The position numbers and the translations under genes are program-made. A stretch of DNA of 64,000 bases, taken from sequence record PZ445440.1; one strand, given 5' to 3'. Of the stretch, positions 2,722 to 60,710 are shown piece by piece; positions within the stretch are counted from its first letter, which is position 1, and each line of letters opens with the position of its first letter. The stretch is from a phage. Below the pieces are notes generated by a model, which had not been told where the DNA came from, ran no database searches, and worked only from the letters and a program-made list of their open reading frames with translations.

Positions 2722-3713
2722 TATTGAACCTTATTAATATAAGTTAACAGCTCTTTAGTTTGTTCCCAACTGATGCACGCATCGGTAACGGAAACGCCAT
2801 AGGACATATTATCAGAAATTTTTTGATTTCCTTCATGTAGGAATGATTCTATCATAATTCCTTTGACCAAATCATTAGCTGCTAAATTTTTACCAATACC
2901 AATTTGATTGCTATAATGCCCATCAGCGTTTGCATGGCTACAGTCAACCATTACATAATGATTCAGACCTACTGCCCTTGCTTTGTTAGAAGCTTCTTGA
3001 ATATCAGAAGAATGATAGTTCGGGCCGTTGGTCCCGCCACGCAATACGATATGCGTATTCTGATTACCTTCAGCTTCAACAATGCCTACAGTACCATCGA
3101 CGTCCATACCCATATACCGATGAGGCCAGGCGGCACTATACATCGCGTCTGTAGCTACTTTAATAGAACCATTAGTTGCGTTCTTGAAGCCTACGCACAT
3201 CGGTAGACCTGAAGCAATTTCACGATGTGTCTGACTTTCAGTCGTACGGGCGCCAATAGCAACCCATGAGAAAATACCAGAAAGATACTTAATCGTGAAT
3301 GGGTCTAATACTTCAGTTGCTAATGGAAGTCCCATACGTAGAAGTTTACGACACAATGTTCGTGCAACTATAAGTCCGTGGTTCATATCAAAACTTCCGT
3401 CAAGATATGGATCATTTACAAGACCTTTCCAACCTACGGTAGTTCGAGGCTTTTCAAAATAAACGCGCATCACTAACAGAACATTAGGAAGACGAGTTTG
3501 AAGTTCAGCCAGACGTTTGCCGTATTCAACAGCAGCAATAGGGTCATGAATTGAACAAGGACCTACAACAATAAGTTTGCGTGGGTCTTCACCGTTCATA
3601 ATCGAATTAACTTGTTCGCGATGAGAAGCCACTTGTGAGGCGTAAGCTTCCGACAAAGGAATAATCTCGGCCAGTTCTTTTGGAGAAATAAGTTTTCCGA
3701 CGACAGGTAACAT
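2721..3713 (-). CDS. 3-deoxy-D-arabino-heptulosonate-7-phosphate (DAHP) synthase, class I (AroG/AroF-like)
   Basis: 330 aa; long colinear blocks shared with recalled E. coli AroG (VVGPCSIHDP, VMRVYFEKPRTTVGWKGL, GARTTESQ.HRE.ASGL, GFKN, ILRGG, SHAN, ESHL.EGNQ, TDAC); TAAGGA RBS. Confidence 0.85.
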   Translation of the reverse strand: MLPVVGKLISPKELAEIIPLSEAYASQVASHREQVNSIMNGEDPRKLIVVGPCSIHDPIAAVEYGKRLAELQTRLPNVLLVMRVYFEKPRTTVGWKGLVNDPYLDGSFDMNHGLIVARTLCRKLLRMGLPLATEVLDPFTIKYLSGIFSWVAIGARTTESQTHREIASGLPMCVGFKNATNGSIKVATDAMYSAAWPHRYMGMDVDGTVGIVEAEGNQNTHIVLRGGTNGPNYHSSDIQEASNKARAVGLNHYVMVDCSHANADGHYSNQIGIGKNLAANDLVKGIMIESFLHEGNQKISDNMSYGVSVTDACISWEQTKELLTYINKVQ

Positions 3714-4070: not shown

Positions 4071-4098
4071 TTCTATTTCCTCATTTGTTGGTAGAGTT

Positions 4099-4128
4099 AT
4101 AGTATCACAACTCTACGGTGTTGTAAAC
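4099..4128 (-). promoter_or_regulatory. T4-type early promoter (GTTTACA-N17-TACTAT)
   Basis: Read on minus strand: GTTTACA, 17-nt spacer, TACTAT; -10 lies in loop of inverted repeat GTAGAGTT/AACTCTAC. Confidence 0.55.
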
Positions 4129-4404
4129 TTAAATTGCAAAACATTTAATTTCTTGTGAATCGAAATCAACTTCGCACTGAATTACTAGTTCAGCATCAAG
4201 TCCAAACACAACAATCACATGAGCCGAGCTGGGCAACAGTGTAACAGACACAGAATCCACTTGGTCAGGCACCAACGTATTCAAAACGTAGAGTAGTTCA
4301 GAGTGGATCTTAAGCTCGGTAGCCGTGTCCAGCTTATCAAAGAAATGATTTGCGATAATCTGACTAAAAACGACCTTTACAATTTCAGAATATTTAGGGA
4401 ACAT
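4129..4404 (-). CDS. hypothetical protein (91 aa)
   Basis: ORF track. Confidence 0.45.
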   Translation of the reverse strand: MFPKYSEIVKVVFSQIIANHFFDKLDTATELKIHSELLYVLNTLVPDQVDSVSVTLLPSSAHVIVVFGLDAELVIQCEVDFDSQEIKCFAI

Positions 4405-6194: not shown

Positions 6195-6222
6195 TTAGAT
6201 TTCCTCAATTATCCATAGGAGC

Positions 6223-6252
6223 ATTATACTCTGCTCCTGAGAGTTTGTAAAC
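6223..6252 (-). promoter_or_regulatory. T4-type early promoter (GTTTACA-N17-TATAAT)
   Basis: Minus strand GTTTACA...TATAAT; -10 inside inverted repeat AGGAGC/GCTCCT; near-duplicate of promoter at 34467. Confidence 0.55.
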
Positions 6253-6476
6253 TATTTTACTAAAGATTCAATATACTCGTGAAGAGCTTTAGTCGCTACT
6301 GCCCACTTATTCTGATATTCATTTTTCAGATTAGCACGAGACTGAACTAACAAGCGGTCATTAGTCGGAGGCAAAGATTCTAATCGTTGAATCTGACGAC
6401 CATAAATCATAGCCGCCATTTCAGAGTCATAGATAAGTCCTTTAAGGTATTCATGCTGTTCTTTAGTCATTGACAT
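6252..6476 (-). CDS. hypothetical protein (74 aa)
   Basis: ORF track. Confidence 0.45.
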   Translation of the reverse strand: MSMTKEQHEYLKGLIYDSEMAAMIYGRQIQRLESLPPTNDRLLVQSRANLKNEYQNKWAVATKALHEYIESLVK

Positions 6477-6757
6477 TTTTCCTCTTTTAAACCACTACGA
6501 TAATAACATAACATAGTCTTCTGGTCATGTACATATCTTTTTACGTCGTTTAACCAGATACGAAATTCTTGAGAGTCTTCAAACGGCATTCCAACCCACG
6601 GATTACCATCAATAACCTTTACTTGCCATTTCTGGTTATATTCAACAATAGATTCAGGCCATTGCGGATGTAAAGTTTCTTTAGGGCTTAAGGGCACATC
6701 CTGGGCACATCCAGCCAAAATGCCAATAGATAATACAACTGCGGTTAATTTAATCAT
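6467..6757 (-). CDS. outer-membrane spanin (o-spanin lipoprotein)
   Basis: 96 aa; signal peptide with lipobox LAGC; immediately downstream of i-spanin candidate; matches T4 pseT.2/pseT.3 arrangement. Confidence 0.65.
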   Translation of the reverse strand: MIKLTAVVLSIGILAGCAQDVPLSPKETLHPQWPESIVEYNQKWQVKVIDGNPWVGMPFEDSQEFRIWLNDVKRYVHDQKTMLCYYRSGLKEEKCQ

Positions 6758-7598: not shown

Positions 7599-7628
7599 AA
7601 TTTTCTCCTCGGGTTGTTGTTAAAAGCC

Positions 7629-7658
7629 ATAGTAACACCTTCCTTGGTGTTTGTAAAC
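7629..7658 (-). promoter_or_regulatory. T4-type early promoter
   Basis: Minus strand GTTTACA-N17-TACTAT upstream of alc. Confidence 0.5.
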
Positions 7659-8794: not shown

Positions 8795-8811
8795 TCAGTT
8801 AGTTTTTTTAA

Positions 8812-8841
8812 ATTGTACCACAATCCTTGTGGTGTGTAAAC
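8812..8841 (-). promoter_or_regulatory. T4-type early promoter
   Basis: Minus strand GTTTACA-N17-TACAAT upstream of rnlA; inverted repeat CCACAA/TTGTGG in spacer. Confidence 0.5.
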
Positions 8842-15062: not shown

Positions 15063-15108
15063 TTTTATTTGATAGGGCTACTATAACATAGCCCTATCTT
15101 GTTGTACA

Positions 15109-15501
15109 CTACTTTTTAAAAGTTTTTTGCAAAAGTTTGATGATTTCGTCGACGTTGGTTTCATCTACGATACAATGGATTTTTGTTACACCTAAAGTTA
15201 TACCTTCGTTAGTAGGTTGAGGCTTTACTAAATCTACCTCAGTAAAGTATTTGAACTCGTCAGGATAAATCTCAAAATAAGTTTCAATTTCACCACCGGC
15301 AGAACATACAGTACCATCTTCCATAGTTACACTTACTACGTTTGACGTATCGCTATCATAATCAGGTTCCATTCCGTTTACAACAAAACTGGGCCCGTGG
15401 AGTTCAATCAATTTTAACATCTTAGCGTTATTGTGTGGTGCTTCTTGAACAAAGTCGTCTTTAAATAAAGGGTTAATGATATAAGATTTTCCAATTTCCA
15501 T
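15109..15501 (-). CDS. hypothetical protein (130 aa)
   Basis: ORF track; early promoter upstream. Confidence 0.5.
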   Translation of the reverse strand: MEIGKSYIINPLFKDDFVQEAPHNNAKMLKLIELHGPSFVVNGMEPDYDSDTSNVVSVTMEDGTVCSAGGEIETYFEIYPDEFKYFTEVDLVKPQPTNEGITLGVTKIHCIVDETNVDEIIKLLQKTFKK

Positions 15502-28695: not shown

Positions 28696-29355
28696 ATGGC
28701 AGCACCAAAAGTATCATTTTCGCCTAGTGATATTTTATTTGGGTTGCTAGACCGCATTTTCAAAGATAACGCCTCTGGAAATATTCTTATTTCAAGAGTT
28801 GCTGTTGTAGTTCTTTTGTTCCTAATGGCACTAATATGGTACAAAGGGAATATTTTTATGGATTATTACGTGAGGTCGAAATATGATACTTACACAGAAG
28901 TAATTCAAAAAGAAAGAAATACACGATTTGAATCTGCGGCTTTAGAACAACTACAAATAGTCCACGTCACATCAAGGGCGGATTTTAGTTCGGTGTATTC
29001 TTTCAGACCTAAAAATCTAAATTATTTCGTCGACCTTATTGCGTATGAAGGTAAGTTACCTAGCACAGTAACTGAAAAATCTATGGGAGGATTTCCTGTT
29101 GATAAAACGACAGCAGAATATTCGGTCCATTTAAGTGGACTTCACTTTACTTCTAAAACAGATTTTGCTTTCTTACCTACAAAATCAAAAACTCCGGAAC
29201 TGGTGTATATGTATAGTTGTCCTTACTTCAATTTGGATAACATATATGCTGGAACTGTTTCTATGTATTGGTATAAGGGGTCGGATGTGTTAAATGAAGA
29301 ACGCTTGGCTGCAATATGCAACCAAGCAGCAAGGATATTAGGGCGGGCTAAATAA
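28696..29355 (+). CDS. t: holin T
   Basis: Track ORF trimmed to Met5 (MAAPK) behind GGGAGG RBS; 219 aa; near-identical to recalled T4 holin (single N-terminal TM plus large periplasmic domain). Confidence 0.9.
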   Translation: MAAPKVSFSPSDILFGLLDRIFKDNASGNILISRVAVVVLLFLMALIWYKGNIFMDYYVRSKYDTYTEVIQKERNTRFESAALEQLQIVHVTSRADFSSVYSFRPKNLNYFVDLIAYEGKLPSTVTEKSMGGFPVDKTTAEYSVHLSGLHFTSKTDFAFLPTKSKTPELVYMYSCPYFNLDNIYAGTVSMYWYKGSDVLNEERLAAICNQAARILGRAK

Positions 29356-29628
29356 TTAGTTGTTAGAATACATCGTCAAATGGCGATAAATATTTTCAAA
29401 ACCTTCATTGAATTCACTAATCAGTGTTTTCTTTTCTTCGGCAGTTAAATTTGTAATTAGTTTTCTGAACGAATTCTGATTTAGCTGCCGACCATCTTTT
29501 TTAATTCCAATCTCATTCAAGAATCCGATGAAATTTGCTCGGTCTTCAACAATATCTTCCCTCGAGAATTTAATCAAAATAGAAGCAACCGTAATAATTT
29601 CACGTACAATTTCAATATCTTTATTCAT
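29356..29628 (-). CDS. asiA: anti-sigma70 factor AsiA
   Basis: 90 aa; matches recalled T4 AsiA (REIITVASILIKFSREDIVE). Confidence 0.9.
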   Translation of the reverse strand: MNKDIEIVREIITVASILIKFSREDIVEDRANFIGFLNEIGIKKDGRQLNQNSFRKLITNLTAEEKKTLISEFNEGFENIYRHLTMYSNN

Positions 29629-29662
29629 AACGTTTTATTCATTCCATTTGGTTGATATGAGT

Positions 29663-29692
29663 ATAGTACCATTATCAGTGTTGATTGTAAAC
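29663..29692 (-). promoter_or_regulatory. T4-type early promoter upstream of asiA
   Basis: Minus strand GTTTACA-N17-TACTAT. Confidence 0.5.
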
Positions 29693-29836
29693 AGCTTTTT
29701 CTACACTTTTAACGTAATCAGTGTAGTCTTCCTGTTCATACGAGTGTAAGGCCAAGAACGTGGCTAATAGTTCATTATAGACTAAAGCCTCACGCCCACG
29801 TTCTGCCTCTACTACGTTCTGTAGATTATGGCTCAT
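29675..29836 (-). CDS. hypothetical protein (about 53 aa; start uncertain)
   Basis: Track ORF 29675..29890 trimmed to internal Met to avoid overlap with upstream gene. Confidence 0.3.
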   Translation of the reverse strand: MSHNLQNVVEAERGREALVYNELLATFLALHSYEQEDYTDYVKSVEKAVYNQH

Positions 29837-29837
29837 A

Positions 29838-30125
29838 TCATTCCTTATAACTATCAATGTAGTCCTGTATGTCAAAGAATGACATTTCATATTCTAGGAC
29901 ATTAAGAGCCCGTTCTTCAGTATAGTCAGAACCAAATACGATAGTGATTTCACCAGGCTTCATGTGATTGAAATCGACACTAAAAGGAATACGAGAACAT
30001 ACTTCGTCTGCCATATCTACAACAACACTACGATACACTTCTCGGTTAACCTGATAAAGCTCTGCAAGTTCTTCACATCGAATAACAAGTTCAGTGGCAG
30101 GATTTTCTTTGATTTTAGTAAGCAT
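29838..30125 (-). CDS. arn: acidic protein, candidate anti-restriction nuclease Arn (by position and composition)
   Basis: 95 aa, strongly acidic; located between asiA and motA as T4 arn (92 aa); sequence itself not recognised. Confidence 0.4.
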   Translation of the reverse strand: MLTKIKENPATELVIRCEELAELYQVNREVYRSVVVDMADEVCSRIPFSVDFNHMKPGEITIVFGSDYTEERALNVLEYEMSFFDIQDYIDSYKE

Positions 30126-30199
30126 AGTCTTTACCCTTATGTTTTTGTTTGCGTTTAGATTGAAGTTCTGATTTCTTCTTATCCTTATGGACAGAAGCC

Positions 30200-30427
30200 T
30201 TATTGAAATCGTGTTTTGCTACAAGATTGTTCATAATGATTTATAACCTCATTTAAACATTTATCGGTAAAAGAAAACTTTTTAGCCACAGAACATTCGA
30301 TGATGTGTTCTTTCAAATCTTTAGAGTCAGTATAACCCATCTCAGTAATAAAGCGGCGAATTAAAGCTTTATTCTTATCATTAACAGAATTAAAATAATC
30401 TGCTTTAGAATCAATTATTCTCATCAT
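30200..30427 (-). CDS. hypothetical protein (75 aa)
   Basis: ORF track. Confidence 0.45.
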   Translation of the reverse strand: MMRIIDSKADYFNSVNDKNKALIRRFITEMGYTDSKDLKEHIIECSVAKKFSFTDKCLNEVINHYEQSCSKTRFQ

Positions 30428-30692
30428 CTAATTTCCTTAATTGATATTGCAACGAGCTAATAATTTCTTCGTTCATTTTAATATACATGTCACGCAAGAA
30501 AGGTTTTAACCCATCACGAATAATTGCTAATGTATCACCTTTACATAAATTGACCAAATAAGGGTGCTCTAAAGCGTCCCAACCAGGCTGATTAGCATAC
30601 ATACCATAGTTTTCTTCCATCATATGATTAAGACGTTTGATATCTTGGATACGTGATTCAATAGCATCTTTCTGGAGTTGTTTAATATTCAT
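30411..30692 (-). CDS. hypothetical protein (93 aa)
   Basis: ORF track. Confidence 0.45.
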   Translation of the reverse strand: MNIKQLQKDAIESRIQDIKRLNHMMEENYGMYANQPGWDALEHPYLVNLCKGDTLAIIRDGLKPFLRDMYIKMNEEIISSLQYQLRKLDDENN

Positions 30693-31153
30693 TAATAAAG
30701 GTCCTCTGAATAAAGTTCTTTCTCACTTCCACCACGTTCAATACGTACCTGTCCAGCATACGTTGCAATAATCATTGCTTCTTCACGCGTCCAGTAATTA
30801 GAGTATTGGTCAATAAAACCTTGGTCGTCACCACAAACTTGTTGCGAGACTAATTGAGGACCAACTATATCAAGTACTTCAGCCATATCTTTAGAGTAAT
30901 GACGAACTCCAGGAATAACCAGAGTTCCGCCGCTCTTCAATTTAAATCTATTAGCTGCACATACTATAACACGTTGAACTTTTTGGTCATTGTTCCAATA
31001 GCACGTTTGCCAACAGATTTCAGGAACTTCATTCATTATATCATCAGCAGAATAATTATAACCGTAGGACTGGAATTTTTCTGCTAGACTTTCAGGAGTC
31101 TCACGAGACAAGGCCAAATCTAATAGCTCTAAACGTTCTTTAAATGATTTCAT
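30692..31153 (-). CDS. hypothetical protein (153 aa)
   Basis: ORF track; overlapping stop/start with neighbours. Confidence 0.5.
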
Positions 31154-31479
31154 TTAAACCATTCCTTAATACGTTGCCAAATAGATTTTTGTGCTTGTTT
31201 ATTTACACCAATCGAACGAATAACCGGTTGTGACTGCTGATATTCTTTATAATCTTCTTTATAGATTTCGTAAGCTGCATCAACAAATGAACTGATCGCT
31301 GCCATATAGTTTTTACGAAGGCCAAATGGCGCATCATTATTTTCACGAATAACCGTATATTGGCCTGCTTTAATCTTTACAATTGTCCCTAAATAAGCCC
31401 CGTGGTACCAAATATCCCATCCTTCCTGAGTAGGTTCTGCACATTTACGAAGTTCGTTAATAATATTCAGCTTATTCAT
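31150..31479 (-). CDS. hypothetical protein (109 aa)
   Basis: ORF track. Confidence 0.5.
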
Positions 31480-31489
31480 TATGTATTCC

Positions 31490-32122
31490 TCACAGTACGT
31501 TAGTTACAAGGGTAATGATTTCTTTGGACACATTAGGGAAGTCAATGTAAGTATATTTACCACCGATCTTAATCTTAACATCATTTTCAAGAGAAGTAAA
31601 CAGCTTTGATTCAGTTTCTGACATGTTGTATGCAAAGATTCTAAGAGCGCCATCTCGTCGAATTTCAATTTGGCGAATACCTAGAACTCGTTTTGCAAAT
31701 CGAACTTCCAAGTTACTACGGTTTTCACCAATTTCTTTAACTTCGACTTTATCTTTAATATTTTCAAAAACAAAGTTTGCCAGTTCATGCATTTCAGGAG
31801 TAACTCCACGGGCTTTTCTGGTGTTACGTTTCTGAAGAAGTTCTGGAGCATTTTCTTGGGCAAAGAGGTCTGCAGCTTTTTGGATAATATCCATTGCTTC
31901 GCCTGTTGCTACAAGTCCATCACCGGATTTTTCGACTAAACCTTTCTTAATCAATACACCAATGTTAGAGTTAACAACCGATGCATTGTATTCTGCTTCC
32001 AGAGCTTCACGGACATTGGCAGCAGTGGTGAAGTTGTTCTTAATGATATAAACCATTATTGCAGCAGTTTTTTCATTCAGAGCGTTTTCAGAAGCTTTGA
32101 TGATGTAAGTAACTTTAGACAT
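31490..32122 (-). CDS. motA: middle-transcription activator MotA
   Basis: 210 aa; N-terminal MSKVTYIIKAS and NSNIGVLIKKGLVEKSGDGL match recalled T4 MotA. Confidence 0.85.
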   Translation of the reverse strand: MSKVTYIIKASENALNEKTAAIMVYIIKNNFTTAANVREALEAEYNASVVNSNIGVLIKKGLVEKSGDGLVATGEAMDIIQKAADLFAQENAPELLQKRNTRKARGVTPEMHELANFVFENIKDKVEVKEIGENRSNLEVRFAKRVLGIRQIEIRRDGALRIFAYNMSETESKLFTSLENDVKIKIGGKYTYIDFPNVSKEIITLVTNVL

Positions 32123-32215
32123 TTTATTTCTCCAATTTGGTTGTTTTGTTTTGATAGGTCTATAATATCATGTTTGAAGCACATGTAAACTGTTTTGTGA
32201 GAAAAATGCACAAAG

Positions 32216-32231
32216 GGGAGCCGAAGCTCCC
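32216..32231 (-). terminator. stem-loop GGGAGC-UUCG-GCUCCC between 52 and motA
   Basis: Hairpin with UUCG loop on minus strand. Confidence 0.35.
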
Positions 32232-32307
32232 TAATCATGTTTATCCAACCAGTACAGCCAAATCACTAGTGCAGCTATTGCACCGAGAAATCCTAAGGCT
32301 AGGGCAC

Positions 32308-33633
32308 TCAAAGTGCCTCCAAGTCTTTAGTGTACTCTGTCACAACATCAGTAGACTTCCAATACTCATTTTCTTCTTTCTTAGCTTTAGCTTCTTCTGC
32401 TAGTTTACGTGCTTCATCGGAAGTGATATGGAAGATGTTAAGTCCTACCAGTTTATCGACATGTTCTTTATACATTTCGATTTGTGCTAGCTCTTCAGTC
32501 AAAGCTTTACGGGTCTTGCCCTGAATCACAATTTCGCCACTGATAACTTTTTTGATGAAGTGTGCCTTAGCAAAAGCAAGTTTAAATGCTTTTTCAGATT
32601 CAAGGATTTTGTTGTCAATACGTTTCTGAACGTAAGTCTTACGGACTTCAACAAAATCTTTGATTAAGTCCACTACGTTATCGTAGACAGCTAATTTACC
32701 CTTTTCATTAATCACTGTGATGTTTTGTGAACGACGTTCGATGAGACTAAAATCTTTCATGATTTTTTCATGACGTAGCTCTTCATCATCAGGAAGCGAG
32801 TACTCTTTACGGAACTTCACCTTAAACCCAAAGCCGTGTTCACCACAATCATCTTCCCATGAGATTAGACCTTTGTCTTCCAACGGGTCAAGAACCTTAC
32901 TCACATACGTTTCACGGTCGAATTTATATGGGATTTCAGTTATCTGCATTTGAGTACGAGATGTGAACTTATATGTTCCGTGAATCTCATAACGCCCATC
33001 AACTTCATGCACTTCACCACGGAATTCCGGGAATTCAACTTTTGGCTTAGTGACATTTTTACCTTGAAGAGCTTGTAATACAGCCTTTTTAACTGATTTA
33101 AAACTATGAGGCAGAATATTTGTTGCGTAACCGGTTGCAATACCAGAGACGCCATTCAAAAGAACTGTCGGAATAATAGGAAGATAGAATTTTGGTGGAA
33201 CGTGTTCTTTATCTTCATGTGCTGGAGCATATTCAGTATCTTTATAGACATTATAGAAATTTTTACTTACACGAGCAAAAATATAACGAGATGCTGCAGC
33301 TTTTTGGACTGTTCTAGAACCAAAGTTGCCCTGGCCGTCTAACAGTGGATAGTTGTTATTCCACGTATTAGCCATCAATGCACCTGCATCTTGCGCAGAA
33401 GATTCGCCATGATGATAACCTAAATCTGCAACACCTCCTGCAATTGATGCAAGTTTATGAAATTTTTCTTTATTACCACGAGCCAAATCTAACGCACGAT
33501 GAACAACAAAACGTTGAACCGGCTTAAATCCATCAATCATGTTTGGGATTGCACGGTTTTCAACGGTGTACATCGCATATGCTAAGGCTTCGTTATCAAT
33601 AATACTTTTTAGATTACGAGAATTCAATTGCAT
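32308..33633 (-). CDS. 52: topoisomerase II medium subunit gp52 (GyrA-like)
   Basis: 441 aa; GyrA/ParC N-terminal motifs (AYAMYTVENRAIP, catalytic Tyr region). Confidence 0.9.
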   Translation of the reverse strand: MQLNSRNLKSIIDNEALAYAMYTVENRAIPNMIDGFKPVQRFVVHRALDLARGNKEKFHKLASIAGGVADLGYHHGESSAQDAGALMANTWNNNYPLLDGQGNFGSRTVQKAAASRYIFARVSKNFYNVYKDTEYAPAHEDKEHVPPKFYLPIIPTVLLNGVSGIATGYATNILPHSFKSVKKAVLQALQGKNVTKPKVEFPEFRGEVHEVDGRYEIHGTYKFTSRTQMQITEIPYKFDRETYVSKVLDPLEDKGLISWEDDCGEHGFGFKVKFRKEYSLPDDEELRHEKIMKDFSLIERRSQNITVINEKGKLAVYDNVVDLIKDFVEVRKTYVQKRIDNKILESEKAFKLAFAKAHFIKKVISGEIVIQGKTRKALTEELAQIEMYKEHVDKLVGLNIFHITSDEARKLAEEAKAKKEENEYWKSTDVVTEYTKDLEAL

Positions 33634-33637
33634 ATTT

Positions 33638-33778
33638 TCACCATATTAATGAACGAATAACCATTATAACATCTGAAATGAAAAGCACTACTTGGATTAG
33701 TCCAAACATCACACCATAATACAGAACCGTAAGCAACAACAAGAGCCCGAAGGCTCCTGCTAAGATTTTCTTAATCAT
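33638..33778 (-). CDS. small hydrophobic protein (about 46 aa), not in track
   Basis: Hand translation MIKKILAGAFGLLLLLTVLYYGV...; occupies the ac/stp position between 52 and ndd. Confidence 0.3.
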   Translation of the reverse strand: MIKKILAGAFGLLLLLTVLYYGVMFGLIQVVLFISDVIMVIRSLIW

Positions 33779-33924
33779 TACTCGCCTTTTAACACGTTAA
33801 GAAGAGCTAAGACCGCTAAGGTGCCTTGTGATACGGCCTGTTGAAATACTGTTGTTTCGCCTGTAACTAAAGTATTAACGAATAAAAACGACCAACACAA
33901 CAATGCAATAATCCATGTTACCAT
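33778..33924 (-). CDS. small hydrophobic protein (about 48 aa), not in track
   Basis: Hand translation MVTWIIALLCWSFLFVNTLVTG...; membrane-like; position of T4 ac. Confidence 0.3.
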   Translation of the reverse strand: MVTWIIALLCWSFLFVNTLVTGETTVFQQAVSQGTLAVLALLNVLKGE

Positions 33925-33975
33925 TTTATTACCTCAAAAATAAATTAAAGGGCCAACTTAATATGCCTGTATAAA

Positions 33976-34422
33976 TTAGTAACTCTGCAGAATGAATTTG
34001 AAATTATCTGCCAGAAGACGGTTCATTTCAGTGAGTGTTTGATATTCTGATGTATGATTGCGAGTGAATGCCAGAGCCAATTGTCCTTTACCATAACCAG
34101 TAGTCAGTGGTTTCATGTTCTTAGCTGCAACAAAAATTACATCATATTCAATATTGTTAGTGCCCATGGTGCGGGCTAGTTGCGAACGGCCTTGACGAAT
34201 GTGAGAAAGAATTGCATCCAACCCTTGTTTAGAACGTTGACGTCCTACAAAAAATCGTGCTGCTACTTGTCGCCAATCAGATGAACCTTTAACAAAGAAG
34301 TAAAAACCTTCACGAGAACGAAACTCTTTAGAAACTTCGGAACCGTATTCGCCATTACGAACTACTGCAACAACTTCACCGCCAACTGCCAGAAGGTCTT
34401 TACGAGTTAAATATTTGGACAT
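33976..34422 (-). CDS. ndd: nucleoid disruption protein Ndd
   Basis: 148 aa; clear match to recalled T4 Ndd ([70 protein letters not shown]). Confidence 0.85.
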
Positions 34423-34466
34423 GCTAATTTCCTCAATTGATTAATGTTTTTGTAATCCATGAGAGC

Positions 34467-34496
34467 ATTATACCCTGCTCTCAAGAGTTTGTACAA
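34467..34496 (-). promoter_or_regulatory. T4-type early promoter upstream of ndd
   Basis: Minus strand TTGTACA-N17-TATAAT; -10 in loop of inverted repeat GAGAGC/GCTCTC; about 40-nt near-duplicate of promoter at 6223. Confidence 0.5.
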
Positions 34497-34498
34497 TT

Positions 34499-34699
34499 TT
34501 ATTCGGCCATATCAGAACGTTCAAAAAGCTCTTCAACAGTTAAACATTCGGTGTCATCTTCAATAAAGAATCGAGTCCAACACGTTGGGGCAATACAGTT
34601 ATGAGTTTGTCCGGCGATAGAAGCTACACGAATAAGCTGCTGACCATTATTCAGAACAAATTTTTCACCAATTTCAACGTCTTTAAAAAGCTTAGCCAT
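34499..34699 (-). CDS. hypothetical protein (66 aa)
   Basis: ORF track. Confidence 0.45.
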   Translation of the reverse strand: MAKLFKDVEIGEKFVLNNGQQLIRVASIAGQTHNCIAPTCWTRFFIEDDTECLTVEELFERSDMAE

Positions 34700-34949
34700 T
34701 TTGTGTTCCTCATGTTTCAGTAGGACTACTATACCATAATCCTACCGTGATGTAAACAATTAAATTACATTAAAATATGTTAAAGCCAACCATGTTCCAG
34801 TGAACGAACATGCAATGTAAAAACCCGTATCGCAAATTGTTCTTAGTACAATAAGAAGTGCATTTTTCATAAGTACCTCAATACAATTGAAAATATTATA
34901 CAAATCATAGGGATACTAAGCAACCATATTCCGATCCACATTTTAGAGC

Positions 34950-35213
34950 TCATATCTCAACTTCCGCAAGTTCCATATATCCTTTGTTGATAACCTCTTT
35001 AAGGTCTTTAGAAAGAATAACACTAAAATGGTCGTTCATATGTCCATTAACTAAACGAGTTATTTCGGCTTCAGATGACATATAAGGCACGTCTGAGTCC
35101 CAATGAGATAGACCCAAATGGGTATAAATCATCCCTTCGTCATCTGTGGTGTTGTACATTGAAACAAACTCACCGGTCACTTTATGTTTTGCGTAGAAAA
35201 ATTTAAATTTCAT
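34950..35213 (-). CDS. hypothetical protein (87 aa)
   Basis: ORF track. Confidence 0.45.
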   Translation of the reverse strand: MKFKFFYAKHKVTGEFVSMYNTTDDEGMIYTHLGLSHWDSDVPYMSSEAEITRLVNGHMNDHFSVILSKDLKEVINKGYMELAEVEI

Positions 35214-35281
35214 GATGTTATCCTCTTTTAGATAGGACTACTATATCATAGTCCTACTTAGTTGTAAACACTTTTATGAAA

Positions 35282-35839
35282 TTAAAGATGAAGATACCAC
35301 CCGTTGTAGTTGCTCTTGCGGACGATTTTCTTTAGGTCTTCATGGTCTCCCACGAACTTTATAGAATAAGAGAAGACGTCAGGTGAGGTTTCTTTGACAT
35401 CTAATATAATAATGCAATCTGCGACTCGATGATTCAAGAAGGGCCCTATATTGATTCCATTACCACCTGGGTAATCACCACTGTATCCTGTGGTAACCGA
35501 AATCCATTTAGAATCTATCTGGTGCGTCTTGACTTCTACACGAATTCCACAATACTTGGGATGGGCTAACACGTCCCATGCATACGTGTACGGGTCTTCT
35601 ACATCTTCAATACCTTTATTAACATATCCGTCTAGCCAATTTGCTACTACATACTCTGCAAAGACCGCAACCTTACAACGTCGAACAACGCCTTCTTTTA
35701 TTTGTCCTGGATCTTGTTTCAACGAGTACCGAGCAGTATCAGCGATCTTAACCTTCATTTCGCTAGTCAAAAACTCATTCGACAGGATAAATGTCGGAAG
35801 ACTCTTCAGCCTCAACAACCCCAAGTTCGTCTTTACCAT
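35282..35839 (-). CDS. denB: endonuclease IV (by synteny and size)
   Basis: Track ORF trimmed to Met22 gives 185 aa, the length of T4 DenB; lies between ndd and rIIB. Confidence 0.5.
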   Translation of the reverse strand: MVKTNLGLLRLKSLPTFILSNEFLTSEMKVKIADTARYSLKQDPGQIKEGVVRRCKVAVFAEYVVANWLDGYVNKGIEDVEDPYTYAWDVLAHPKYCGIRVEVKTHQIDSKWISVTTGYSGDYPGGNGINIGPFLNHRVADCIIILDVKETSPDVFSYSIKFVGDHEDLKKIVRKSNYNGWYLHL

Positions 35840-36062
35840 AGATACCTCTGATGTGTAGTTCGCCAAAATAAATGCGGTCTCCTTCTTCAAGATATTCTGC
35901 ATCTACCGGTGGGATTTCAATAACAACTTCGTCGCATTCTAACCAGCCGTAGTGTGCATCGCCAGGATGTTTTACCAATTTAGCACAATAAACTGATTTA
36001 CACTTATGGTGACCACGAAGATTAGCAATTTTGGATTCTGATACGTCAAATGGATGAATCAT
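35775..36062 (-). CDS. hypothetical protein (95 aa)
   Basis: Track ORF trimmed to Met14 which follows AGGGG RBS and the rIIB terminator. Confidence 0.45.
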   Translation of the reverse strand: MIHPFDVSESKIANLRGHHKCKSVYCAKLVKHPGDAHYGWLECDEVVIEIPPVDAEYLEEGDRIYFGELHIRGIYGKDELGVVEAEESSDIYPVE

Positions 36063-43613: not shown

Positions 43614-43885
43614 TAGTAAGTTTCCTTCCAATAAGTTGTACCATTTTCAGTGATTTCACGGAAGATACCATAGATAGGCATTTCATCACCGAGTTTTTCG
43701 TAAACGTAAACCACTTCAGTGTAGCATAAAAATTCGGTCCAGTTTTTCTGTACAACAACTAAATCAGGATTAAACAGAACATCTTCAAACTCGTCGATGT
43801 TTGAATCAGTAGTTACATTTTTAATGATTTGACGTTTCATAATATTCTCCTCTTGTTTTGATAGGTCTATAGTATCATAGACCAT
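43613..43885 (-). CDS. hypothetical protein (90 aa)
   Basis: ORF track; early promoter upstream. Confidence 0.45.
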
Positions 43886-43897
43886 AGTTGTTGTACA

Positions 43898-44422
43898 TCA
43901 TTTTAGCAAAATAAAATCAACTTGTTCTGCCAATGAACGTCTAAACATTAATTGACAACTTCCGAGGATGAAATCAGGTGCTTCATAGACGGCGATGTAG
44001 TATCCTTTAGCTTTCAAGAGTTCAACATCCACCTGGTCATCAAACCATGCATAAACCGCGTCAACACTTTCAAATCCAAAATAGAACCCTTGAGCCCAAT
44101 CTTCACTCAATTCAAATGTGTGCTCAATTCTATAGTATCTTAAGATATTTTGTTCAAGGAGTTTGTCTTCATTTACTGTAGGACGATTAGGGACATTATA
44201 GTTGTCACCGTGATGGTAGAAGTTACCTGAGAGTATTCCATGCTTATCAAGGAACTCCCATGTTTCTTCAGAGTTGTCGGTGCCTGACCAACCGTATGGC
44301 GAACGAGGTTCTTTATTCCAAGAGGTTTCCCAAATTCTGACGGCTTTACCGTCTTCAATAGCAATTCCTGGTAATGATTCACGTTGAGTACAAAAACTAC
44401 GTTCTACGCGGTAAACTAACAT
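43898..44422 (-). CDS. hypothetical protein (174 aa)
   Basis: ORF track; motB-region position. Confidence 0.45.
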   Translation of the reverse strand: MLVYRVERSFCTQRESLPGIAIEDGKAVRIWETSWNKEPRSPYGWSGTDNSEETWEFLDKHGILSGNFYHHGDNYNVPNRPTVNEDKLLEQNILRYYRIEHTFELSEDWAQGFYFGFESVDAVYAWFDDQVDVELLKAKGYYIAVYEAPDFILGSCQLMFRRSLAEQVDFILLK

Positions 44423-44481
44423 ATTATTCTCCTCTGGTTGATATGGTTATAATATCAAAACCAGAGGAGAAGTAAACAACT

Positions 44482-45375: not shown

Positions 45376-45437
45376 ATTTTTTCTCTCTTTGTTTAAGTTG
45401 AATTCATTATACTCCATCCATCCTTGGATGTAAAACA

Positions 45438-45974
45438 TTAATTAAGAATATTAACTACTGCACTACGTGGAACAACACTAAAATCACCTGCATGAACAAC
45501 GTTCAGAAGTTCAACACCGTCTTCAATCCACTGGTCAGTTACCCAGCCACTTACCGGTCCAGCGAACGGACGTCGAATTGAAACAGCTTTACACAACAAA
45601 TCAGTAGGCTCAATAGGCTTAATCAGAGTACCGTACATACAAGCGATATCCATATCAATACAGATGTCTTTAACGGGTTCTACTTCTTCAATCAACAGTT
45701 CAAAGTCGGTGTTTGGAAGGGCGGTAGTAGAAATTGTACCGTATGAATTTTTAATTTCTAAGAATAACCAAGGGCCTTCAGCTTGTTTGATAAAGTTAAC
45801 AATAGTGAAACTATTACCTTGAGTGGCACCTAAAATTTCGCAAAACTTTTCATAAGCTCGCACTGAAGCGCCGTACCAGTTGATTTGTTTTTCGTCTTTC
45901 AGGATGTAAGTAGCCGTAGTATTGATATTCATAATGTTTTCCCGTTTGGTTAAGATAGAAAGATTATACTCCAA
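45438..45974 (-). CDS. hypothetical protein, member C of tandem paralog family
   Basis: 178 aa; C-terminal GWVTDQWIEDGVELLNVVHAGDF.VVP matches motif of members A and B. Confidence 0.5.
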   Translation of the reverse strand: MEYNLSILTKRENIMNINTTATYILKDEKQINWYGASVRAYEKFCEILGATQGNSFTIVNFIKQAEGPWLFLEIKNSYGTISTTALPNTDFELLIEEVEPVKDICIDMDIACMYGTLIKPIEPTDLLCKAVSIRRPFAGPVSGWVTDQWIEDGVELLNVVHAGDFSVVPRSAVVNILN

Positions 45975-45997
45975 CCATCCTTGGTTGTAAACTGGTT

Positions 45998-49873: not shown

Positions 49874-50455
49874 CTAAAAATTCAACATTTTCAAATGAAT
49901 GATTTTGTATAATCGAGATAAAGGGTCATATTCTAAGTCTTCAATTTCCACAATCTCAAATCTAGAGATACCTGAGACCATGTACTCTTGTTCAGATTCA
50001 ATCATATCTAGGACGTCAACACGCGTTTCTTCCATAACATGCTTAGGGTTCTTTCCGGCGAGTACAATGTTAACCATGTTTTGGTAGTAATCAAAAATGA
50101 ATGGAGCATTCCTGAGACTAAGAATAGTGTACGTCTGATATTCCCATCTCCCAGAGAATTGACGAGCTGTACTGAAATCAGTTGTGAACGATGTTACTCG
50201 TCCAGGAGACCAATGGCATCCAACAGAAAGAAGGGAAAGACGTTCTACTTCTTCTGGAGTTACACCACGGTAGAGTTCTACTGGTACTGTAGAAGTCATA
50301 TGCTTACGAACAAGATGGTCTAATTCATAGTGGAAATCCGGGTCTTCCTTAGAATCGGTGCAAGCCCAGAGAATGTTTTGTTCTTGGCGGGTGAATTTGC
50401 TATCAATCAGATTTGTTAGGTATTCGCGTTCTTGAAGTTCAGATTGACATGTCAT
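49874..50455 (-). CDS. modA: ADP-ribosyltransferase (ModA-like, upstream paralog)
   Basis: 193 aa; motifs LYRG, TSFT, EQEYMV; A/B assignment by order only. Confidence 0.5.
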   Translation of the reverse strand: MTCQSELQEREYLTNLIDSKFTRQEQNILWACTDSKEDPDFHYELDHLVRKHMTSTVPVELYRGVTPEEVERLSLLSVGCHWSPGRVTSFTTDFSTARQFSGRWEYQTYTILSLRNAPFIFDYYQNMVNIVLAGKNPKHVMEETRVDVLDMIESEQEYMVSGISRFEIVEIEDLEYDPLSRLYKIIHLKMLNF

Positions 50456-50671
50456 GATAGACCTCCATTTAAAGATAAGTCTATCATAACACGAGAGGAG
50501 GGAATGTAAACTACTTTTTAAGCTTTCCTACTAAAGGCCCATCAGGACTAGGTTGTTCTAACATGAATAAGGATGCTTTAAAAAGCAATGTCAACCCTTT
50601 CACCATTCGATACCATGTCTCAAAGTCTTTTTCCTTGATTTCTAGTAAGAATTTCTCTTTAAATTTCTCTT

Positions 50672-54875: not shown

Positions 54876-55535
54876 TTAACCTCGATTCATAAATGCATTA
54901 AATATTTGGTCATCAACAGAAATTTCTAATTCGACTTCAATTGCTTCGGCCTTTTCTTCAGGTGGTAATTCGTATCCACACACTACAATTTTTTCATCGA
55001 TATCAAAATATACAGAAGCAATACGATTAATGTTATTTTCAGTTAAGTCCAAATCAACATCAACATCTTTTTGGCCTACACTTAGAGGATAACTAATACG
55101 GGTTATTTTATTATCTTTAACAAAGAGTCCACCAACATACTCTGTACTGCGTTTGAAGTTTACACGTTTCCGAATTGAAAGATATGATACATCTTTACCG
55201 TGAGCTCGGCTCATAGGACATAATGAATAGCTAGAATAAGAGATGTCAAATCCCACACCTTCAATATGAGCCAACGTGTCATGATTAAACCAATTATAAT
55301 CATATGCCAAATCCATTATATTGTAATATGTGAAAGGCACAGGATTAACATCATATGTTGTACCTTTAAAATCTGCCCAGGCAACGATTTCGTTATCTTT
55401 AACAATTACAAAAATTACACCGAGATGGTATCCGTTATTATTTTCATTCGGCGTTATATTATAACATTGTGCATTAGGAAATTTACCATATTTAAATGGT
55501 GCATTTTTGTGCATATAATAAATCATATTATTCAC
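54876..55535 (-). CDS. hypothetical protein (219 aa)
   Basis: ORF track. Confidence 0.5.
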   Translation of the reverse strand: MNNMIYYMHKNAPFKYGKFPNAQCYNITPNENNNGYHLGVIFVIVKDNEIVAWADFKGTTYDVNPVPFTYYNIMDLAYDYNWFNHDTLAHIEGVGFDISYSSYSLCPMSRAHGKDVSYLSIRKRVNFKRSTEYVGGLFVKDNKITRISYPLSVGQKDVDVDLDLTENNINRIASVYFDIDEKIVVCGYELPPEEKAEAIEVELEISVDDQIFNAFMNRG

Positions 55536-55821: not shown

Positions 55822-55884
55822 TTTAACTCCTTAGTTGATTTGATAGGACTACTATACTATAGTCCATCTATAATGTAAACAAAT

Positions 55885-57135: not shown

Positions 57136-57190
57136 TTTGTTCTCCAGTAGTTGATAGGTCTATAATAACACAACTACTGGAGAAGTAAAC

Positions 57191-57565
57191 TTAAAAATGT
57201 AATTTAGATACATCTGCGTTGATTTCGGTTTGGTTTGCGTCATATGCAATTAAACGAACCGCTTTAGATGGGTCATTCAATGCATAGAAATGATGGAACA
57301 TTGCTCGAACGATATCACCATTTACGAGTTCTACCTGGATAGGAGAACCTTTTTCGAGTTGGAAATGTTCATAAGCTTTGATGGTTCGTAGATAATCAAG
57401 TTTTTGATTTCCAGCTCCAACGATTTGTACGATACGTTTGCCCATGTTTTCCATACGAGATACAATAGTTTTAGGAGCAAGAATAACGTAGGTTGCCAGC
57501 GGAGAAACTACTTCAACAGTTGTGTTTTCGGTGATTGCAGTAAAAATTGCTTGAGACATATTCAT
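57191..57565 (-). CDS. hypothetical protein (124 aa)
   Basis: ORF track. Confidence 0.45.
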   Translation of the reverse strand: MNMSQAIFTAITENTTVEVVSPLATYVILAPKTIVSRMENMGKRIVQIVGAGNQKLDYLRTIKAYEHFQLEKGSPIQVELVNGDIVRAMFHHFYALNDPSKAVRLIAYDANQTEINADVSKLHF

Positions 57566-57630: not shown

Positions 57631-57648
57631 AGGAGACCGAAGTCTCCT
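57631..57648 (-). terminator. stem-loop AGGAGAC-UUCG-GUCUCCU after gene 41
   Basis: Same hairpin family as 582/15592; directly follows gene 41 stop. Confidence 0.5.
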
Positions 57649-60612: not shown

Positions 60613-60710
60613 TGTATTTTTCCATAGGCATCATTATATTTTACTCATGTTTAAAAGATAAGATGATTATATACTAAGGGTTATACAGCATTTAAAACTT
60701 TAAATGGCTC

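Follow-up and report, generated by a model that had tools for sequence, protein, structure and literature searches.

Why should the -10 hexamer of a phage early promoter lie in the loop of an inverted repeat? The question is raised by an intergenic site at positions 6215-6255 of a 64,000-nucleotide (nt) stretch of phage DNA (sequence record PZ445440.1; this whole stretch is called the window below), where, on the minus strand, the hexamer of a promoter that we call P6252 is flanked by the arms AGGAGC and GCTCCT. An earlier note on this DNA had listed 14 such early-promoter sites and argued that arms which differ between promoters but stay complementary imply selection for a structure, either a DNA cruciform at the promoter or an RNA hairpin in read-through transcripts. 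We find that the complementarity exceeds expectation, that the arms change in a compensatory manner, and that the imperfections of the stems are of a type which favors RNA hairpins in read-through transcripts, selected for their structure, over a cruciform.

Early promoters and their start-site box

The window is 100% identical to positions 32479-96478 of MZ501056.1, Escherichia phage ChristianSchoenbein (Bas46), a Mosigvirus of the RB69 group of T-even phages; roughly 900 T-even genomes have matches to the region. Nearly all genes are carried by the minus strand, the tail-fibre block excepted, and include orthologues of the T4 early and middle genes pseT, alc, rnlA, nrdAB, td, frd, 32, motA, 52, ndd, denB, rIIAB, 39, dexA, dda, modA/B, 61, imm, dmd and 41. 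The motif GTTTACA-N16-18-TANNNT occurs 16 times in the window against 0.9 expected, with 15 of the 16 on the minus strand. A position weight matrix (PWM) trained on 24 curated sites of the window itself, with the alignment anchored on the -10 hexamer, gave 27 promoters on the minus strand, among them all 14 of the sites listed earlier, and one on the plus strand.

The consensus of the 24 promoters consists of an A-tract at -43..-40, GTTTACA, the spacer, TGn, TAttAT and A..C.TATCaA. The A-rich tract is UP-like (A at -43 in 17, at -41 in 15 and at -40 in 19 of the 24), the TGn element has T at -15 in 19 and G at -14 in 20, and the start box has C at -3 in 16, T at -1 in 20 and A at +1 in 21, where +1 was throughout inferred from spacing as lying 7 nt past the -10 hexamer. 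The spacer had been given as 17 nt, which holds for P6252 and for most of the promoters, but it is 16 nt in 9 of the 27.

The claim of a conserved box downstream of the hexamer was borne out. A -10 hexamer followed by YYTATC (TANNNTNNNYYTATC) occurs 17 times against 3.75 expected, and none of 100 shuffles reached 17. On sequence grounds the CCTATCAA box is thus a real shared element corresponding to the transcription-start region, about -3 to +5. T4 promoters also carry it (e.g., acaaCTATCAAC and taccCTATCAA), and it doubles as the 3' arm of one class of stems (class A, below). The promoters sit 5' of alc, rnlA, motA, ndd, a modB-like gene, imm, spackle and others, with a Shine-Dalgarno (SD) sequence and ATG about 20-25 nt past +1, and by the same kind of evidence they are T4-type sigma-70 early promoters.

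The UP-like A-tract at -40 to -44, GTTTAC, TGn and TAnnnT agree with the early promoter consensus given for T4 and RB69 in the excerpts of the literature on which our citations rest throughout (PMC1524935, PMC2988021). In RB69 early promoters C is preferred at -3 to -1 (Nolan et al. 2006, PMC1524935), and those of T4 are described as having "additional regions of consensus" (Hinton 2010, PMC2988021). The full C.TATCaA box and its complementarity to the spacer are, in contrast, absent from the accounts excerpted from these two papers. The T4 GenBank record holds no promoter features usable as a mapped set, a literature search for 5'- or 3'-end sequencing of T4 or T-even phages found none, and a search of the whole window against Rfam 15 gave no match at the gathering score.

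Complementarity across the -10 hexamer

All the arm pairs quoted in the earlier note are present. At least six contiguous Watson-Crick pairs between the spacer and the sequence past the hexamer were found in 9 of 24 promoters of the window, against 13% in a null in which the 3' halves were exchanged between promoters so that the column consensus was preserved (permutation of stem length: p = 0.0014 for the count, p < 0.0002 for the mean). Relative to dinucleotide shuffles the fold z was -2 or lower in 12 of the 27 promoter regions. Hairpins folded individually had energies of -11.9 to -23.9 kcal/mol and z values of -2.6 to -7.2, the RNA hairpin predicted for P6252 being at -11.9 kcal/mol with z = -2.6; such energies ignore ribosomes, co-transcriptional folding and RNases.

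The stems have three geometries. In class A, that of P6252, the 5' arm has its last base at -17 and the 3' arm covers -6 to about +4, which leaves the -10 hexamer in the loop. These hairpins are compact (7-12 base pairs (bp), -9.5 to -19 kcal/mol) and often reach inward into the hexamer to give loops of 6-10 nt. Hence the claim that in at least nine promoters the hexamer sits in the loop of an inverted repeat stands as to the repeats, but in several the stem enters the hexamer. In class B the SD sequence and AUG of the next gene are paired with the 5' half of the spacer, which is rich in pyrimidines, or, at P50511, with the -10 hexamer and box. Class C stems are small hairpins contained entirely in the spacer, and their loop is often AGGA. 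The hairpins had been placed just upstream of the next ribosome-binding site, whereas the longest stems (57190, 44477 and 50511) pair with the SD sequence or start codon itself. Arm lengths of 6-13 bp had also been claimed, but the 13-bp arm at 44477, given as 'CTCTGGTTGATAT', is really CTCTGGTT-tt-GATAT and is interrupted by a 2-nt bulge.

Two sequence preferences accompany these geometries. Across phages, class A promoters have the non-consensus -10 hexamer TATAGT more often than other promoters do (18 of 33 versus 7 of 75), with examples in the window at 35240-35245, 34728-34733, 15080-15085 and 55851-55856; its G and T pair with ..AT of the spacer and lengthen the stem, and thus RNA pairing and -10 sequence seem linked. 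An (A/T)AGGA motif, complementary to the TCCT of the start box, is conserved in spacers at about -22..-18 (e.g., 8824-8828, 7640-7645 and 45975-45979), where it forms the hairpin loop in class C and part of the 5' arm in class A.

The same PWM scan was run over a comparison set made up of the Mosigvirus phages HX01, ESCO47, PECP20, ECO111 5-P and MRostami-2023e, the Tequatrovirus phages ES26, LF73P3 and T4, and ten IMG/VR contigs. The IMG/VR loci were obtained by Ndd (3) and PseT (7) queries, which served the orthologues of the promoters at 4128, 6252 and 7658, and GenBank phage records were added. This gave 155 unique promoter sequences (about 12 phages); since the pooled promoters are phylogenetically related, p-values overstate their independence. 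At least eight Watson-Crick pairs enclose the -10 hexamer in 42 of the 155 versus 5.05 in the null, and at least ten in 23 versus 0.6. Among the 108 promoters with a 17-nt spacer, which were not selected for stems, 51.3% of the cells in the class A register were paired versus 46.0% upon shuffling (0 of 500 shuffles), and 33 had at least five consecutive pairs in that register. The earlier note had suggested a test of covariation on the aligned promoters: the score in this alignment was 0.234 versus 0.174 for shuffled sequences (0 of 500), with 0.108-0.166 when the register was slid. Each of the first six class A positions shows two to four standard pair types and no A.C. In the window alone per-column covariation is weak (p = 0.02-0.03 for the best columns) because stems occur in only a subset of the promoters.

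Compensatory changes were seen between paralogous promoters of the window, as had been claimed, and also between orthologues in other phages. Orthologues of P6252 form the series AGGAGC/GCTCCT, GGGAGC/GCTCCT (with a G.U pair) and GGGAGC/GCTCCC, whereas its paralogues have GAGAGC/GCTCTC and GGGACC/GGTCCC. The promoter at 4128, orthologous to that of T4 cd.2/cd.3, passes from GTAGAGTT/AACTCTAC through GTGGAGTT/AACTCTAC (G.U) and, in T4, GGTAGAGTT/AGCTCTACC (U.G) to GGTAGGACT/AGTCCTACC. In class B, CTCCTCTGG/CCAGAGGAG at P44477 is replaced by the compensated pair CTCCTCTAG/CTAGAGGAG in ESCO47. Comparison with T4 early promoters, another check proposed earlier, found both the box and stems of classes A and B in that phage: GACAAGACT/AGTCTTGTC and GGGACC/GGTCCC are class A, and AGTCCTC/GAGGACT (alc), CTGTTCTTCCGTGG/CTATGGAGGAACAG and TTCCTTTGT/ACAAAGGAG are class B. 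The class B arms continue past the SD sequence into neighboring bases that are particular to each gene, and are therefore more than a generic anti-SD composition.

RNA hairpin or DNA structure

Given stems that are conserved in this manner, the imperfections within them discriminate between RNA and double-stranded DNA. Among internal transition-type imperfections of stems with at least six Watson-Crick pairs, G.T outnumbers A.C by 41 to 9 when read on the sense strand, and the A.C cases are all in weak, long-loop stems. For 39 unique class A sequences the ratio is 22:0, versus about 16:17 in arm-swapped controls. A G.U pair is tolerable only in sense-orientation RNA or in a single DNA strand, and hence the asymmetry disfavors a cruciform, which needs both strands paired; it does not separate sense RNA from a hairpin in the non-template DNA strand alone. 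Of the two structures offered in the earlier note, the RNA hairpin is thus the one that these counts support.

An action of the repeats in DNA, by a supercoil-driven cruciform or single-stranded hairpin that alters promoter opening or by aiding the recombination of cassettes, seems to us very improbable. It would account for the exactness with which the repeats bracket the hexamer, the 3' arm beginning at -6 in the 39 unique class A sequences; moreover, indel junctions in these phages fall within promoters, and the loops of PeSLs, stem-loop cassettes of phage RB49 that are considered below, are demonstrated recombination crossover sites (PMC2839356). Besides the strand asymmetry of the mismatches, it meets the objections that recombination between cassettes needs direct similarity of the copies, not self-complementarity, and that arm sequences vary between promoters, leaving no common protein site. 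An operator function for the arms was rejected on the same ground. Arms of 6-10 bp with loops of 6-30 nt are, in addition, poor cruciform formers. An inverted repeat is integral to the early promoters of phage N4 as well, where a DNA hairpin with a 5-7 bp stem and a 3-nt loop is recognized by the virion RNA polymerase. In contrast, the promoters of the window are ordinary sigma-70 promoters with long loops and a mismatch pattern that points to RNA.

Predicted effects on translation of the downstream genes

The early genes lie head to tail, and thus each promoter would also be transcribed as part of longer RNAs initiated upstream. We propose that, in about one third of the cases, the promoter sequence has evolved to make such read-through RNA fold back on itself. 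As the inferred +1 lies downstream of the 5' arm, the promoter's own transcript would lack that arm (and, in class A, most of the 3' arm), and the hairpin could form only in read-through RNA.

For class B (57190, 44477 and 50511) the gene would be translated from the RNA of its own promoter and poorly from read-through RNA. The 5' arms of this class are at -29 to -1, with the inferred +1 downstream. The predicted cost of opening the region from the SD sequence to the AUG is, in read-through RNA versus own RNA, 19.1 versus 3.7 kcal/mol at P57190, 21.4 versus 3.1 kcal/mol at P44477 and 16.0 versus 4.4 kcal/mol at P50511; chimeras in which the upstream halves of other promoters were placed on the class B sites gave 5-8 kcal/mol.

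For class A (4128, 6252, 15109, 34496, 34757, 35269, 43898 and 55880) the spacer would pair with the box and lock up the pyrimidine-rich promoter RNA, and the downstream ribosome site would be equally accessible in read-through RNA and in the transcript of the promoter itself. The hairpin would thus be an insulator, with a possible further role, proposed for PeSLs, in slowing or attenuating polymerases that arrive from upstream. It is plausible that the UCCU-like sequence of the box could otherwise pair with the nearby SD sequence and that the AGGA-containing 5' arm sequesters the box. In 41 unique class A promoters the predicted opening cost of the ribosome site averages 3.4 kcal/mol in read-through RNA versus 2.4 kcal/mol in own RNA, whereas 80 other promoters require 6.45 kcal/mol in read-through RNA (difference from class A, p = 0.0002). 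With the 5' arm scrambled, opening the class A ribosome sites is predicted to cost 1.7 kcal/mol more (n = 41, p = 4.5e-9, the sequences not being independent).

We give a probability of roughly 0.6 to this explanation as stated, in which hairpins form in read-through RNA and those of class B mask, and those of class A spare, the ribosome site. It begins from what the sequences contain: promoter motifs, more complementarity than expected, arms that change in a compensatory manner and stem imperfections of the G.U type only. Several points weigh against it. Only about 12 of the 27 promoters have a significant stem, and stems are lost in orthologues (a GGTCT/AGTCC pair with a T.T mismatch in HX01 and PECP20, a replaced 5' arm in ESCO47, and the degraded stem of P545); any selection is thus conditional or weak. 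The relatedness of the pooled sequences inflates the p-values, and we count roughly 10 independent G.T events. The minimum free energies of the whole region (-30..+34) are equal for sense and antisense (-10.8 versus -10.7 kcal/mol, p = 0.97), and thus the strand argument depends solely on the G.T and A.C counts. The stop codon of the upstream gene is often 8-15 nt before the 5' arm, so that terminating ribosomes may partly open the stems. We infer the start sites from spacing, and the folding of the RNA in vivo and its effects on translation are predictions, the insulator effect of class A being a modest thermodynamic one.

If the RNA explanation is right, it would account for conservation of T-even early promoters beyond the needs of RNA polymerase, with promoter DNA doubling as a structured RNA element. 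Class B genes would be translated only from their own RNA and class A genes shielded from interference, which bears on the shut-down of early expression. A bolder extension, which we regard as less likely than not, is that the stems constitute a genome-wide, protein-free switch tying translation to the promoter that made the RNA. The class B genes (those for a ModB-like ADP-ribosylase and two small open reading frames (ORFs) here; alc, dexA and others in T4) would be translated only from their own immediate-early RNA and fall silent after early-promoter shut-off even though read-through or middle-mode RNA still spans them, whereas the insulated class A genes would be translated from any transcript. 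Such a switch would be an unrecognized layer of the early-to-middle transition of T-even phages, and a mirror image of the late-gene hairpins of e, soc and 49.

Relation to PeSL cassettes and terminators

The cassettes of phages RB49 and phi1 called PeSLs (promoter-early stem-loops) are composed of an AT-rich tract, a sigma-70 promoter, a stem-loop, an SD sequence and a start codon (Arbiol et al. 2010, PMC2839356). Their stems were proposed to act as terminators or attenuators, which was shown for one stem in a lacZ construct, and the cassettes to mediate modular shuffling by recombination, with crossovers in the loop and mini-circles (PMC2839356). PeSLs were later extended to PST/T4 and nt-1/KVP40, with the PST/T4 stems placed just 5' of the promoter (Comeau et al. 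2014, PMC4122927).

The promoters of the window are likewise repeated intergenic cassettes of AT tract, early promoter, stem-loop, SD sequence and start codon in early regions rich in ORFan genes, and small ORFs bounded by them are inserted, deleted or replaced between close relatives. The RB49 stems lie mostly between -35 and -10 or over -10, with G-T pairs noted (PMC2839356), and classes A and C match this; upon checking RB49 itself we found a spacer hairpin (CGGGGAgaaaTCCCCG) and a hairpin with -10 in the loop, at positions 3201 and 25338. Since the cassettes fit the PeSL description, the phenomenon belongs to an already known kind. The differences are that many stems enclose the -10 hexamer here and in T4, whereas the excerpted account puts the T4/PST stems 5' of the promoter (PMC4122927), that none of the five PeSL subclasses in the excerpts has the SD pairing of class B, and that the excerpted PeSL literature does not describe PeSLs for phages of the RB69 group.

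The original PeSL proposal, applied to the window, holds that the stems terminate or attenuate upstream polymerases, thereby isolating gene cassettes and preventing promoter occlusion. For the stems of the window we consider this unlikely. It has the precedent that one RB49 stem-loop between promoter and lacZ cut expression about as much as rrnB T1 (Arbiol 2010, PMC2839356), and the RB49 hairpin with -10 in the loop, AAGGGAGA.../...TCTCCCTT, is followed by TTCTTTT and folds at -23 kcal/mol, much like an intrinsic terminator; the class A hairpins of the window are also stable, as noted above. However, RB49 stems are G/C-rich and sometimes precede a U tract, whereas those of Bas46 are A/U-rich, with loops of 6-10 nt, and precede AUCAAA, ACUGAAA or CCAACAA; none of the class A stems of the window has the G/C-rich stem and immediate U tract of an intrinsic terminator. 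A terminator scan of 29000-36000 called no class A stem on the minus strand, yet found a classical hairpin 5' of P32190. Class B, with loops of 17-30 nt and stems that end in the SD sequence, does not fit termination either. One class A stem was flagged as an antisense terminator on the plus strand; this candidate was rejected, as its T-rich run is about 15 nt away and the mismatch asymmetry favors the other strand. The PeSL view of terminators and recombination sites is thus refined in that most T-even stems are not terminator-like.

RNA masking of a ribosome site has its own precedent in T4, where the longer transcripts of e, soc, 49 and I-TevI form a hairpin that hides the ribosome site and whose 5' strand contains a late promoter (Uzan and Miller, PMC3014915). 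P57190, P44477 and P50511 similarly pair the SD sequence or AUG with an upstream strand that bears the promoter, and their own transcripts are predicted to be open. The internal promoter of the T4 genes is late (TATAAATA), with the logic, according to the excerpted text, that a late gene is silent in early RNA, whereas that of class B is an early sigma-70 promoter and the predicted logic is translation only from its own immediate-early RNA. Class B hence works like this family but is not a strict member of it. Beyond the PeSL and T4 literature, as far as its excerpts go, are the strand-specific G.U evidence, the T-even stems that enclose -10 without terminator features, and the split between masking and sparing. 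The cassettes would also be compact insulated expression units for phage engineering.

Cassette evolution as a source of the complementarity

Could the complementarity be a by-product of how the cassettes evolve? In such a scenario a palindromic ancestral cassette was copied and its arms were kept matched by templated (quasipalindrome) mutation or gene conversion, with no selection for structure. Many of the promoters are plainly paralogous cassettes (e.g., aactct..NNNNNNagagTATAATNNNNNN and TAGGACTatgaTATAGTAGTCCTATC), and copies of them bound single-ORF indels. ESCO47 lacks the ORF bas46_0136 (57191-57565), which lies between P57624 and P57190; the junctions there are inside promoter spacers (locus L014, position 1585) and leave a chimeric promoter without the class B 5' arm. 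Between gene 52 and motA, HX01 and PECP20 carry an additional small ORF of about 216 nt (cf. 32100-32320 of the window), bracketed by two 86-nt copies of the P32190 cassette that comprise promoter, 5' untranslated region and first codons (ATGTCTAAA), at 25434 and 25756 of the HX01 locus (L013) and at 25490 and 25811 of the PECP20 locus (L016). The chimeric arms GGTCT and AGTCC of these two phages, with their T.T mismatch, look like the result of cassette crossovers in the loop. The alc promoter even switches class, being C in Bas46 and B in T4-like phages.

The T4 record also bears on this point, in that the loop of one such hairpin was formerly reported in inverted orientation, so that these DNA repeats would be prone to rearrangement or to artefact. 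The misc_feature at 133300-133313 of AF158101 (3301-3314 of our locus L021) reads 'inverted complement of previously reported sequence; corrects the early promoter Pe133295'. Those 14 bases (TTGTGATATTATAG) comprise the loop of the class A hairpin GGTAGAGTT/AGCTCTACC together with its two innermost pairs, and perfect arms of 7 bp lie on either side; the loop with the -10 was thus once reported flipped. Either an artefact of cloning or sequencing or a true inversion between the arms could explain this. Quasipalindrome-templated mutation was, reportedly, first described in T4 rII by Ripley and co-workers.

We nevertheless judge a by-product improbable, as templated correction gives perfect Watson-Crick pairs and is blind to strand, which leaves the tolerance of G.T and exclusion of A.C in class A unexplained. 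Moreover, class B arms reach gene-specific flanks (CTGTT/AACAG, CATG/CATG and GTAGTTG/CAACTAC) that could not have been inherited from a common cassette.

Promoters of the window and further observations

The promoters and associated hairpins of the window are collected in Table 1. The predicted fold of P50511 has -23.1 kcal/mol and z -5.8. A promoter related to P545 in a related phage locus (L012), with a closely similar leader, has an intact counterpart of 11 bp, TTGGTACAGGT/ACCTGTACCAA. The two UUCG-loop hairpins at the end of the table are, from their sequence, probably real terminators after genes 41 and 52.

Table 1 Early promoters and hairpins of the window (energies and z values are for predicted RNA folds)
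Feature	Class	Positions	Strand	Description
P6252, -35	A	6246..6252	-	GTTTACA; first base overlapped by TAG stop of the upstream ORF
P6252, 5' arm	A	6232..6238	-	AGGAGC(A); in spacer, -23..-17
P6252, -10	A	6223..6228	-	TATAAT; in hairpin loop
P6252, 3' arm	A	6217..6223	-	(T)GCTCCT; -7..-1
P6252, start-site box	A	6212..6219	-	CCTATGGA; inferred +1 is A at 6216, from spacing
P4128	A	4088..4128	-	hairpin 4091..4116, GTAGAGTT(GT)/(AT)AACTCTAC; -12.6 kcal/mol, z -5.4
P15109	A	15069..15109	-	hairpin 15071..15098, GATAGGGCTAT/GTAGCCCTATC; -18.7 kcal/mol, z -6.2
P34496	A	34456..34496	-	hairpin TGAGAGC/GCTCTCA; P6252 paralogue
P34757	A	34717..34757	-	hairpin CGGTAGGATTAT/GTAGTCCTACTG, including G.U pairs
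P35269	A	35229..35269	-	hairpin GTAGGACTAT/GTAGTCCTAT; -13.2 kcal/mol, z -3.7
P43898	A	43858..43898	-	hairpin GGTCTAT/ATAGACC
P55880	A	55840..55880	-	hairpin GATGGACTAT/GTAGTCCTATC
P100		59..100	-	-10 enclosed; TTGGTACAGG/CCTGTACCAA, 10 bp; -18.2 kcal/mol, z -4.7
P57190	B	57140..57190	-	spacer TTCTCCAGTAGTTG pairs with CAACTACTGGAGAA, which holds the SD of the next gene; 14 bp; -21.1 kcal/mol, z -5.9
P44477	B	44427..44477	-	TTCTCCTCTGGTT..GATA pairs with TATCAACCAGAGGAGAA (SD); 13 bp + 6; -23.9 kcal/mol, z -7.2
P50511	B	50448..50511	-	-10 and start box (GTGTTATGATAGACTT) pair with GAGGTCTATCATGACAT, the SD and AUG of the ModB-like gene
P8841	C	8801..8841	-	spacer hairpin CCACAAggaTTGTGG, about 8817..8833
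P7658	C	7618..7658	-	alc promoter; spacer hairpin AACACCaaggaaGGTGTT
P45992	C	45952..45992	-	small spacer hairpin AACCAaggaTGGTT
P45435	C	45395..45435	-	small spacer hairpin TCCAaggaTGGA
P57624		57584..57624	-	weak SD pairing TTCCTCT/AGAGGAA
P15560		15521..15560	-	pyrimidine-rich spacer TTCTTCC; weak pairing possible with SD GAGGAA
P32190		32151..32190	-	motA promoter; perfect CCTATCAA box; -10 without enclosing stem
P56621		56581..56621	-	-10 without enclosing stem
P56191		56151..56191	-	stem not significant
P51993		51953..51993	-	stem not significant
P49874		49834..49874	-	stem not significant
P49133		49094..49133	-	stem not significant
P29692		29652..29692	-	weak stem
P18864		18824..18864	-	low promoter score; 5' of RNase H gene
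P545		506..545	-	degraded stem
UUCG-loop hairpin		57632..57647	-	GGAGACttcgGTCTCC; G/C-rich, then T-rich; just 5' of P57624
UUCG-loop hairpin		32215..32232	-	GGGAGCttcgGCTCCC; G/C-rich, then T-rich; just 5' of P32190

The first base of the -35 element falls within or directly beside the stop codon of the upstream ORF (e.g., TAG running directly into TTTACA) at 6252, 8841, 15109, 43898, 49874 and 50511, and also at 4129 and 57191. Hairpin formation could be modulated by, or coupled to, ribosomes that terminate only 8-15 nt away from the 5' arm.

The sole plus-strand match to the early-promoter model is at 55158-55188 (GTTTACA-18-TATGAT, score 16.2), antisense within an early gene. On the minus strand, a -10 hexamer with YYTATC but without a good GTTTAC -35 element occurs at 1806-1820 (TATTAT TAATCTATC) and at 60657-60671 (TATAAT CATCTTATC); these sites, which have the start box in common with the early promoters, could be weak or middle-mode promoters. 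In T4, three early promoters (167086, 163673 and 6630) share a longer repeated leader, TACTAT acaaCTATCAACTACTGATACAG, and at 6630 the spacer TCAGTAGTTGAT pairs over 12 bp with ATCAACTACTGA.

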